Assembly: GCF_003334305.1 (NCBI RefSeq)
Contig: NZ_QOWS01000040.1
From: Escherichia coli
GTDB lineage: Bacteria > Pseudomonadota > Gammaproteobacteria > Enterobacterales > Enterobacteriaceae
Length of the DNA stretch: 17,427 nucleotides
Strand: one strand, 5' to 3'
Part shown: positions 10,262 through 11,824 of the stretch, piece by piece
Position numbering within the stretch: the stretch's first letter is position 1
Layout of the letters: the number at the start of each line of letters is the position of its first letter
The notes under the pieces: model-generated
What the model was told of the DNA's origin: nothing
The model's input: the letters and a program-made list of their open reading frames with translations, nothing else
The model's database searches: none
Position numbers and translations under genes: made by a program

Positions 10262-10878
10262 TTTTTTCTCGTCTTTCTGGTTTGATGTCATTGAGCTATA
10301 AAGTAGTCAATAAACAATATTGACCGATCGTCTAATAATCAACGCTGATATCCCAGTGTTTGTCAGAAAACAAGAATTGCTTTTCTTTTCATCAGGTTAA
10401 ATCTATCTTTTTTGATTTATATCAAACCAGATTCGGTCTTCAATTATATAGGCATCAATGTTAGCGGTCCTACAAGATACGCAGTCGATGCTTCAGGGCG
10501 TACTGATGAAATAAAACAAGTAGGCTGAGATTAGTTGGTCTGCTCATCGCTCACAGCGGACCTTCAGCTTCGTTAGCCAAGCGCTGACATAGTTACCGAT
10601 GTAGCGTGTTAATCTGTCGGGAGCATAGCCGAAATCACTTAACCCATTAGACTTCACCTAAAACTGCAAAAATTACCGTCTTTGTCACACTCACCGAGTT
10701 TAATCAAACTAACACTGTACATAGTGCGAACAAGAGCCAACCAGAAAGACTGTTCAGCATCAACAGTGAAGTTTTTCCCCGCCACTTCCCCGCAATTCCT
10801 CCGCAGTTTTCCCACTAGAGAGTTCGACACATCCCTTGCATACCAACGCTTTGATTCAAATCTCGGTAGTGCATCCAA

Positions 10879-11324
10879 TTAGTAGAATATGTGTTTTTCG
10901 ATAAATGCTCCGATCACTTTTTCGTGGATCTCAACTGAGCGTGAGAAGCAGATTGTTTACGAGCCAACCGCTTAATGTGGGTGCGTAGCGTCAGATTATT
11001 ACGCTCAATGCGTTGGGTGAATATTTTGCCGGTCAGATGCTTATTCTTCGGCACCACCCGGCCATAGCTGTCCCAGTCATCGCTGGTGAGCATGCCGATG
11101 TTGAAGGGTGTAAGCAGTGCCAGTAGCTCCCGGCACGTTTGATCGGTTCGGGGACCAAAAGTGTAGGCCAGTACACCGCCTGTTTTGGTGTTGTACGCGT
11201 ACCAGAGCCAGTGTAGCCGGGCTTTACTGCCAACGTAGCTCCATTGCTCATCAAGCTCGCAGATAAGCGCCACATCAGCATGGGCAACAGGCGAAGAAGT
11301 TATTTGCGTTGGCGCGAGTTTTTT
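10879..11324 (-). pseudogene. insB: IS1-family InsB' transposase frame, apparently frameshifted near the 3' end
   Basis: The frame entered by -1 slippage at A6C encodes …ELDEQWSYVGSKARLHWLWYAYNTKTGGVLAYTFGPRTDQTCRELLALL…IFTQRIERNNLTLRTHIKRLARK, then reads QSASHAQLRSTKK* and stops at 10914. A different frame encodes SVEIHEKVIGAFIEKHIFY*, resembling the canonical InsB C-terminus …SVELHDKVIGHYLNIKHYQ*, with its stop inside the terminal IR at 10879-10881. This implies an indel near 10955. Confidence 0.6.
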
Positions 11325-11572
11325 AAAGTCCGGATGATGGTGTTAATACCAATTTTCAGTGTCCTGGCGGTATCGCGAACCCCGGCACCATTAAAGGCCA
11401 TTTCAGTGATCATCTCTTTCATACCCGGCTTACGTGCTTGATAAGTATAAGTGAGCTGAAACACACGGTGGCAGTCACGGCAGCGAAATCTGTCACGGCC
11501 TTTAGGGTTCTGACCATGGCGGTAAACCTGAGCTGACTGACAACGGGGACAATGAATATTAACGCTGGCCAT
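11300..11572 (-). CDS. insA: IS1-family InsA (zinc-finger/HTH regulator)
   Basis: 90-aa ORF MASVNIHCPRCQSAQVYRHGQNPKGRDRFRCRDCHRVFQLTY… with a Cys4 zinc-finger arrangement, roughly half identical to E. coli IS1 InsA by eye. Ends just after the A6C slippery motif, as in IS1. Confidence 0.85.
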   Translation of the reverse strand: MASVNIHCPRCQSAQVYRHGQNPKGRDRFRCRDCHRVFQLTYTYQARKPGMKEMITEMAFNGAGVRDTARTLKIGINTIIRTLKNSRQRK

Positions 11573-11824
11573 GAGATAACCTCAAAAGCCCGTATTATAC
11601 ATCAGATTCAACCAATTAGAGGCATCACCCTTTCCTACATTCGTAGGACTTTGATTACATATAGCAAGGGTTAATTCTTATATACATAGAATAAATTAGG
11701 AATATAATGAATTTTATCGTGACGACCTTATTTATAATTAATTTATATCGTCAGAGAAATTAGTGTCCACAATATGAAGTCTTACAAAGAGATTCTATGA
11801 TTTAAAAAAAATAAGAGCCAGCTT

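Follow-up and report, generated by a model that had tools for sequence, protein, structure and literature searches.

The window, by which we mean the whole 17,427-nucleotide stretch analysed here, is Escherichia coli chromosomal DNA and is 100% identical over its full length to several complete genomes. It carries fecIRABCDE (235-7780), followed by a frameshifted IS3-family transposase pseudogene (~8678-9844), which in ATCC 43896 and other strains is further interrupted by a group II intron (ltrA). Adjoining this pseudogene are the first 115 codons only of an MDR-family oxidoreductase gene (9917-10261, minus strand), and a stretch of about 600 bp without an annotated gene separates that fragment from the subject of this study, an IS1-family element of the IS1N type on the minus strand at 10865-11629. 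Beyond it, 195 bp of AT-rich DNA lead to an antiporter-decarboxylase-antiporter module (11825-17342), which encodes a basic amino acid/polyamine antiporter of 489 aa, an Orn/Lys/Arg-family decarboxylase of 789 aa and a second antiporter of 499 aa; it resembles an accessory acid-resistance or polyamine module. The module occurs in about 500 of the 5426 complete E. coli genomes on which our counts are based, and the left end (IRL) of the IS1N-type copy always lies 195 bp upstream of it. On plasmids, the nearest relatives of the module are distant antiporter genes of Providencia and Salmonella (67-72% DNA identity). On the module side of the element, a hairpin with a 6-bp stem (TCCTACATTCGTAGGA, 11633-11648), flagged as terminator-like but with a weak T tail, begins 4 nt from IRL, and a promoter-like site, TATACA-16-TATAAT, lies at 11681-11708, upstream of the antiporter gene.

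In one complete genome (L009, NZ_CP104371.1), two 768-bp IS1F-like copies bound the window (5231-5998 and 23430-24197), each 2 nt beyond its end. They are in inverted orientation, are identical to each other at 756 of 768 positions, and are both PGAP pseudogenes with internal stops; we found no matching target duplication at them (TCGGGAGGA versus TACAACTGG). Possibly the window is a contig whose assembly broke at IS1 repeats; alternatively, the block from fec to the decarboxylase may once have formed a composite-transposon-like unit. A smaller composite transposon, in which the IS1N-type copy and another IS1 would bracket the antiporter module, was considered and rejected: the right-hand IS1 is IS1F-like (91% identical to IS1A), and there is no matching target duplication. 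Like the element studied here, the two bounding copies are pseudogenes at module boundaries and have no target duplications; unlike it, they belong to the IS1A/IS1F lineage and were killed by internal stops rather than by a frameshift.

Members of the IS1 family are around 770 bp long, with imperfect terminal repeats of about 23-30 bp that start with GGT(G/A)ATG. The element at 10865-11629 has 765 bp and can be aligned over its whole length with intact 766-bp copies (98% identity), so that the boundaries drawn for it in an earlier sequence-only reading stand; its GGT(G/A)ATG ends align both with those copies and with IS1A. IRL (GGTGATGCCTCTAATTGGTTGAATCTG, 11603-11629, minus strand) lies at the 11629 end and IRR (GGTAGTGCATCCAATTAGTAGAATATG when read inward, 10865-10891, plus strand) at the 10865 end, and the two repeats match at 20 of 27 positions. 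Position 17 of IRL is G here and A in the intact copies, a change private to the window copy. The internal layout is that of the family, with insA followed by insB' in the -1 frame, the two being joined at an A6C motif. The open reading frame of insA (11300-11572, minus strand) is intact and encodes 90 aa with a zinc ribbon and a helix-turn-helix (Pfam PF03811 and PF12759). The slip site for -1 programmed frameshifting from insA to insB', AAAAAAC, is located at 11318-11324 on the minus strand; as TTTAAAAAAC it shows no variation among the window copy, the intact copies and IS1A, which bears out the earlier statement that it is conserved. In all, the Pfam domains Zn_ribbon_InsA, HTH_Tnp_IS1 and DDE_Tnp_IS1 were found. 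The insA promoter expected in IRL was not picked up by a consensus promoter scan under the criteria of that scan.

By frame bookkeeping, the -1 frame is open from the slip site onward, and the insB' frame (10914-11321, minus strand) then runs to a premature TAA at 10914-10916, giving a fusion product of 219 aa. In the neighbouring frame, an out-of-frame leftover of the conserved InsB C-terminus, TICFSRSVEIHEKVIGAFIEKHIFY, extends over 10879-10956 on the minus strand; it corresponds to the last ~25 positions of PF03400 and ends with a TAA at 10879-10881, within IRR and 35 nt beyond the stop of the insB frame. Both the early stop and the displaced C-terminus had been described correctly from the sequence alone. 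The window copy thus does not have the complete InsAB' with a stop inside IRR that marks an autonomous element, and the direct repeat of 8-9 bp that IS1 produces at its target is also absent.

InsA of the window copy is identical to InsA of K-12 IS1A at 41 of 87 positions (47%), and in an alignment of the whole elements 53% of the DNA is identical, in agreement with the earlier estimate of about half and the assignment to a distant relative of canonical IS1. The accompanying claim that this is not an ordinary E. coli IS1 copy holds for the divergence from IS1A; nonetheless, 1284 of the 5426 complete E. coli genomes match the element. With the reading frame repaired, the fusion protein is 96.1% identical to that of an intact E. 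coli copy, 91-92% identical to S. dysenteriae IS1N proteins and 87% identical to an E. fergusonii homologue, while the intact E. coli copy is itself 95-96% identical to the S. dysenteriae IS1N proteins. In exact-sequence look-ups, the proteins of the window copy fall into 90%-identity clusters whose members are named 'insertion element iso-IS1N protein insA/insB' and 'IS1-like element IS1N family transposase [Shigella dysenteriae]'. By the ISfinder convention, isoforms share roughly at least 95% amino-acid or at least 90% nucleotide identity. On the basis of the NCBI protein names and the 90% clusters, 'IS1N-type' is the most precise name that can be supported. The element appears to be of the well-known IS1N (iso-IS1) type, and it is not unusual for E. 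coli.

With IS1N itself (iso-IS1 'nu-xi' of S. dysenteriae) and the 766-bp isoforms of E. coli (WP_085949012.1), the window copy has in common the length class, the ends, the insA/insB' layout and the A6C motif. It differs from them in its length of 765 bp, in a broken InsAB', in nine private amino-acid changes and the private position in IRL, and in residing without a target duplication at a single fixed locus. Canonical IS1 (IS1A of E. coli K-12, 768 bp) resembles it in the GGT(G/A)ATG ends, the zinc ribbon and helix-turn-helix of insA, A6C, the DDE domain of InsB' and the stop codon in IRR, which is out of frame in the window copy; the low identities given above set the two apart. In the literature on IS1N and on what the C-terminus of InsAB' does, our search turned up no IS1N-specific work.

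To locate the lesion, we used three intact relatives, two chromosomal and one from a plasmid, all of them 766 bp long and labelled by PGAP as 'IS1 family transposase, programmed frameshift'. The window copy differs from the closest of them by 14 substitutions and one gap. This gap, at alignment column 672, changes CGTAAAACAATC of the intact copies to CGTAAACAATC: one A is gone from a run of four, leaving AAA at 10956-10958 (minus strand). The sequence-only reading had postulated a single indel near 10955, only 1-3 nt away, and RefSeq/PGAP independently labels the copy a pseudogene ('IS1 family transposase, frameshifted'). References with the C-terminus and stop position of the window copy would have spoken against such a lesion; those that we aligned carry the conserved C-terminus in frame and are one base longer. 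The fusion protein of the window copy is in frame through residue 206, after which 13 aberrant residues (QSASHAQLRSTKK) follow; its 219 aa, ending in ...RLARKQSASHAQLRSTKK, are 12 short of the 231 aa of the intact protein, which ends in ...RLARKTICFSRSVEIHEKVIGAFIEKHMFY. The repaired protein matches PF03400 (DDE_Tnp_IS1) with residues 102-231 over the full model (1-131 of 131, E = 1.9e-72), so that residues 207-231 belong to the family domain, and the window copy is without the last ~25 positions of this domain.

Relative to the intact E. coli copy, the 13 coding changes of the window copy comprise nine that are non-synonymous and four that are synonymous. None of the nine amino-acid differences recurs in the homologues from E. 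coli, S. dysenteriae and E. fergusonii, which agree with one another at these sites except for one that varies in E. fergusonii. The balance of 9:4 suggests relaxed constraint, small as the numbers are. Another 766-bp copy, PGAP-intact (L005, 301-1066, NZ_CP025913.1), carries W124G as well as E109V, which lies beside the first inferred catalytic Asp and turns ELDEQW into ELDVQW; it also has no target duplication, and it may be inactive too, despite its open frame.

Elements matching the window copy are widespread. In the complete E. coli genomes, 745 of the places matched are on plasmids, and the plasmid collection yielded further matches from genera that include Klebsiella, Pantoea, Shigella and Enterobacter. 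Intact 766-bp copies are common on plasmids and occupy as many as 44 places in a single genome, and one intact relative (L003) has an 8-bp target duplication, GGAGTTAG, at its ends. The broken allele is distributed differently. It is the best match at 99% identity or more in 495 records, and neither the plasmid collection nor the complete E. coli genomes held it on a plasmid at that threshold. Its copies are 99.6-100% identical to each other, and the exact allele recurs across many complete genomes from unrelated isolates (human, orangutan, possum, wastewater and poultry sources). A search with synthetic flank junctions returned about 500 genomes with the antiporter-side junction and 397 with both flanks and the IS between them, and in every one of the two-flank matches listed exactly 765 bp separate the flanks. 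Among the matches listed, records with the allele almost always have it in one place each; a few, which we did not inspect, have two or three. The agreement between the 495 records and the roughly 500 antiporter junctions argues that the allele sits at this one locus only. Broken copies hence appear to be confined to a single locus, a conclusion deduced from counts of the best place per record and not from copy-by-copy inspection. Strains H2 (NZ_CP010163.1, 1046321-1047862) and NT1F25 (NZ_CP075472.1) have an annotated IS1A-family element inside the span of the IS1N-type copy. The span in H2 measures 1542 bp, or 765 + 768 + 9, which would fit one IS1 nested within another, with an apparent 9-bp duplication.

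As the sequence-only reading had noted, no target duplication flanks the window copy: the 9-mers on its left (TCAAATCTC, 10856-10864) and right (CTTTCCTAC, 11630-11638) have no duplicate on the other side and match each other at one of nine positions. Since the copy has diverged by only 2% from active ones, decay of an 8-9 bp duplication to this level is unlikely. The flanks themselves point to different sources. To the left, window 9917-10553, comprising the oxidoreductase fragment together with 260 bp of upstream sequence, is 94% identical to plasmid pE76_001 of Enterobacter sp. E76, and this part of the island looks plasmid-derived; the adjacent segment 10554-10864 had no match in E. coli outside the island, in plasmids or in species-representative genomes. 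For the right flank, the plasmid collection gave distant antiporter genes only, with no homology upstream of them. No genome with the antiporter module lacks the junction of IRL with the DNA upstream of the antiporter gene. About 100 complete genomes retain just the first 129 bp of the same IS1N copy, including 24 insA codons, where an IS3 element cuts it (L007 2873-2944; L008 3058-3129; also L011, L015 and L017). Beyond IS3, these genomes have different genes, either a DUF2254 protein with a BCCT transporter or an MFS gene. An empty site was not detected in complete E. coli genomes with a synthetic junction of 400 + 400 bp of flank, and neither the 20-mer across the left junction nor the 24-mer across the right one had an exact match in species-representative genomes. 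Because the junction is kept in all module genomes and the two flanks have differing matches, we read the position of the IS1N-type copy as a seam between modules of different origin. The most economical explanation for the missing duplication would be a later deletion of adjacent DNA mediated by the IS, or the replacement of one flank by recombination.

Taken together, the window copy is very probably a non-autonomous, decaying IS1N-type copy that has become fixed where two parts of an E. coli island meet. An intact member would have its insA translated from a promoter in IRL, and about 1% of ribosomes would slip by -1 at A6C to produce the InsAB' DDE transposase, with its stop codon in IRR. 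This mechanism is established for IS1A, and the conserved anatomy suggests it for elements of the present kind. In the window copy, the loss of one A from the A4 run would shift the frame and yield an InsAB' without the conserved C-terminal ~25 residues, so that the copy is most likely unable to move itself and would be passed on with the island rather than by transposition. With insA and both ends kept, InsA may still be made, and mobilisation of the element in trans by an intact IS1N-type copy is conceivable in principle. Canonical IS1 transposase acts mainly in cis and, when overproduced, moves otherwise immobile copies in trans (2025; PMC12903888). We saw no sign that the window copy had been mobilised in this way. 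The two suggestions made earlier, loss of autonomous transposition and IS-mediated rearrangement, are both inferences to which the single-locus distribution and the mosaic flanks lend support.

It seemed conceivable that the 219-aa product is a natural variant of the transposase that works with a shorter tail, so that the element would still be autonomous. The putative catalytic D, D and E, placed in ELDEQW, TSDDW and QRIERNN by alignment with IS1A and by the published IS1 D-D-E motif, all lie upstream of the deletion, the A being lost 16 codons past the inferred E. Moreover, the NCBIfam model transpos_IS1 (NF033558; cutoff 100) scores the truncated and the repaired protein alike, with 258.9 and 258.7 bits. 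This model covers protein positions 8-206 and ends exactly at the break, however, and is therefore blind to the C-terminal damage. The lost tail falls within PF03400 and is conserved between IS1N-type (CFSRSVEIHEKVIG) and IS1A (SFSKSVELHDKVIG) proteins, and the allele itself gives no sign of spread, occupying one locus, being never found on plasmids at 99% identity or above and having no target duplication, all of which makes a functional variant very unlikely. A homopolymer error in sequencing or assembly, behind which the real element would be an intact one of 766 bp, could be imagined for an indel in a run of A, a typical site of such errors. The run is just four long, though, and the copy also has 14 private substitutions. 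The exact truncated ORF of 119 aa, aberrant tail included, is recorded under CFT073 and APEC O1 and on at least 1000 contigs. Public data also contain the exact 219-aa fusion product, and hundreds of complete genomes that were sequenced independently have the identical 765-bp sequence at this locus. The identical allele in about 400 independent complete genomes excludes the error, and we give this explanation practically no weight.

A third alternative grants the frameshift and holds that the window copy is kept because it is useful, as an InsA-only repressor of IS1N-type transposition or as a regulatory or boundary element for the antiporter-decarboxylase genes. In canonical IS1, InsA is a repressor and an inhibitor of transposition. 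In every copy of the allele seen, insA is intact, and the junction of IRL with the antiporter upstream region persists in all of the roughly 500 module genomes, even where the rest of the IS is lost. Trans effects of IS1 proteins are documented for the canonical element (PMC12903888). Against this, copies as similar as these (99.6-100%) would be expected to retain an intact ORF of 273 nt without any selection, around 100 genomes have insA reduced to 24 codons and still possess the module, and the antiporter's promoter-like site is not part of the IS. We consider retention for usefulness very doubtful, and the specific proposals, that insA or the C-terminally truncated InsAB' inhibits IS1N-type transposition in trans or that the IRL end helps to control the antiporter-decarboxylase module, equally hard to credit.

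A decaying, non-autonomous copy thus remains the reading that we prefer, and the object as such is already known, being annotated in RefSeq as a frameshifted pseudogene in hundreds of genomes. Its correct label is that of a frameshifted IS1N-type pseudogene, neither a novel IS nor an assembly error. For E. coli, the allele provides a stable marker of the fec / antiporter-decarboxylase island, being present at the same junction in about 400-500 of the 5426 complete genomes; for insertion sequences, it illustrates how copies at the joints of islands decay in place.
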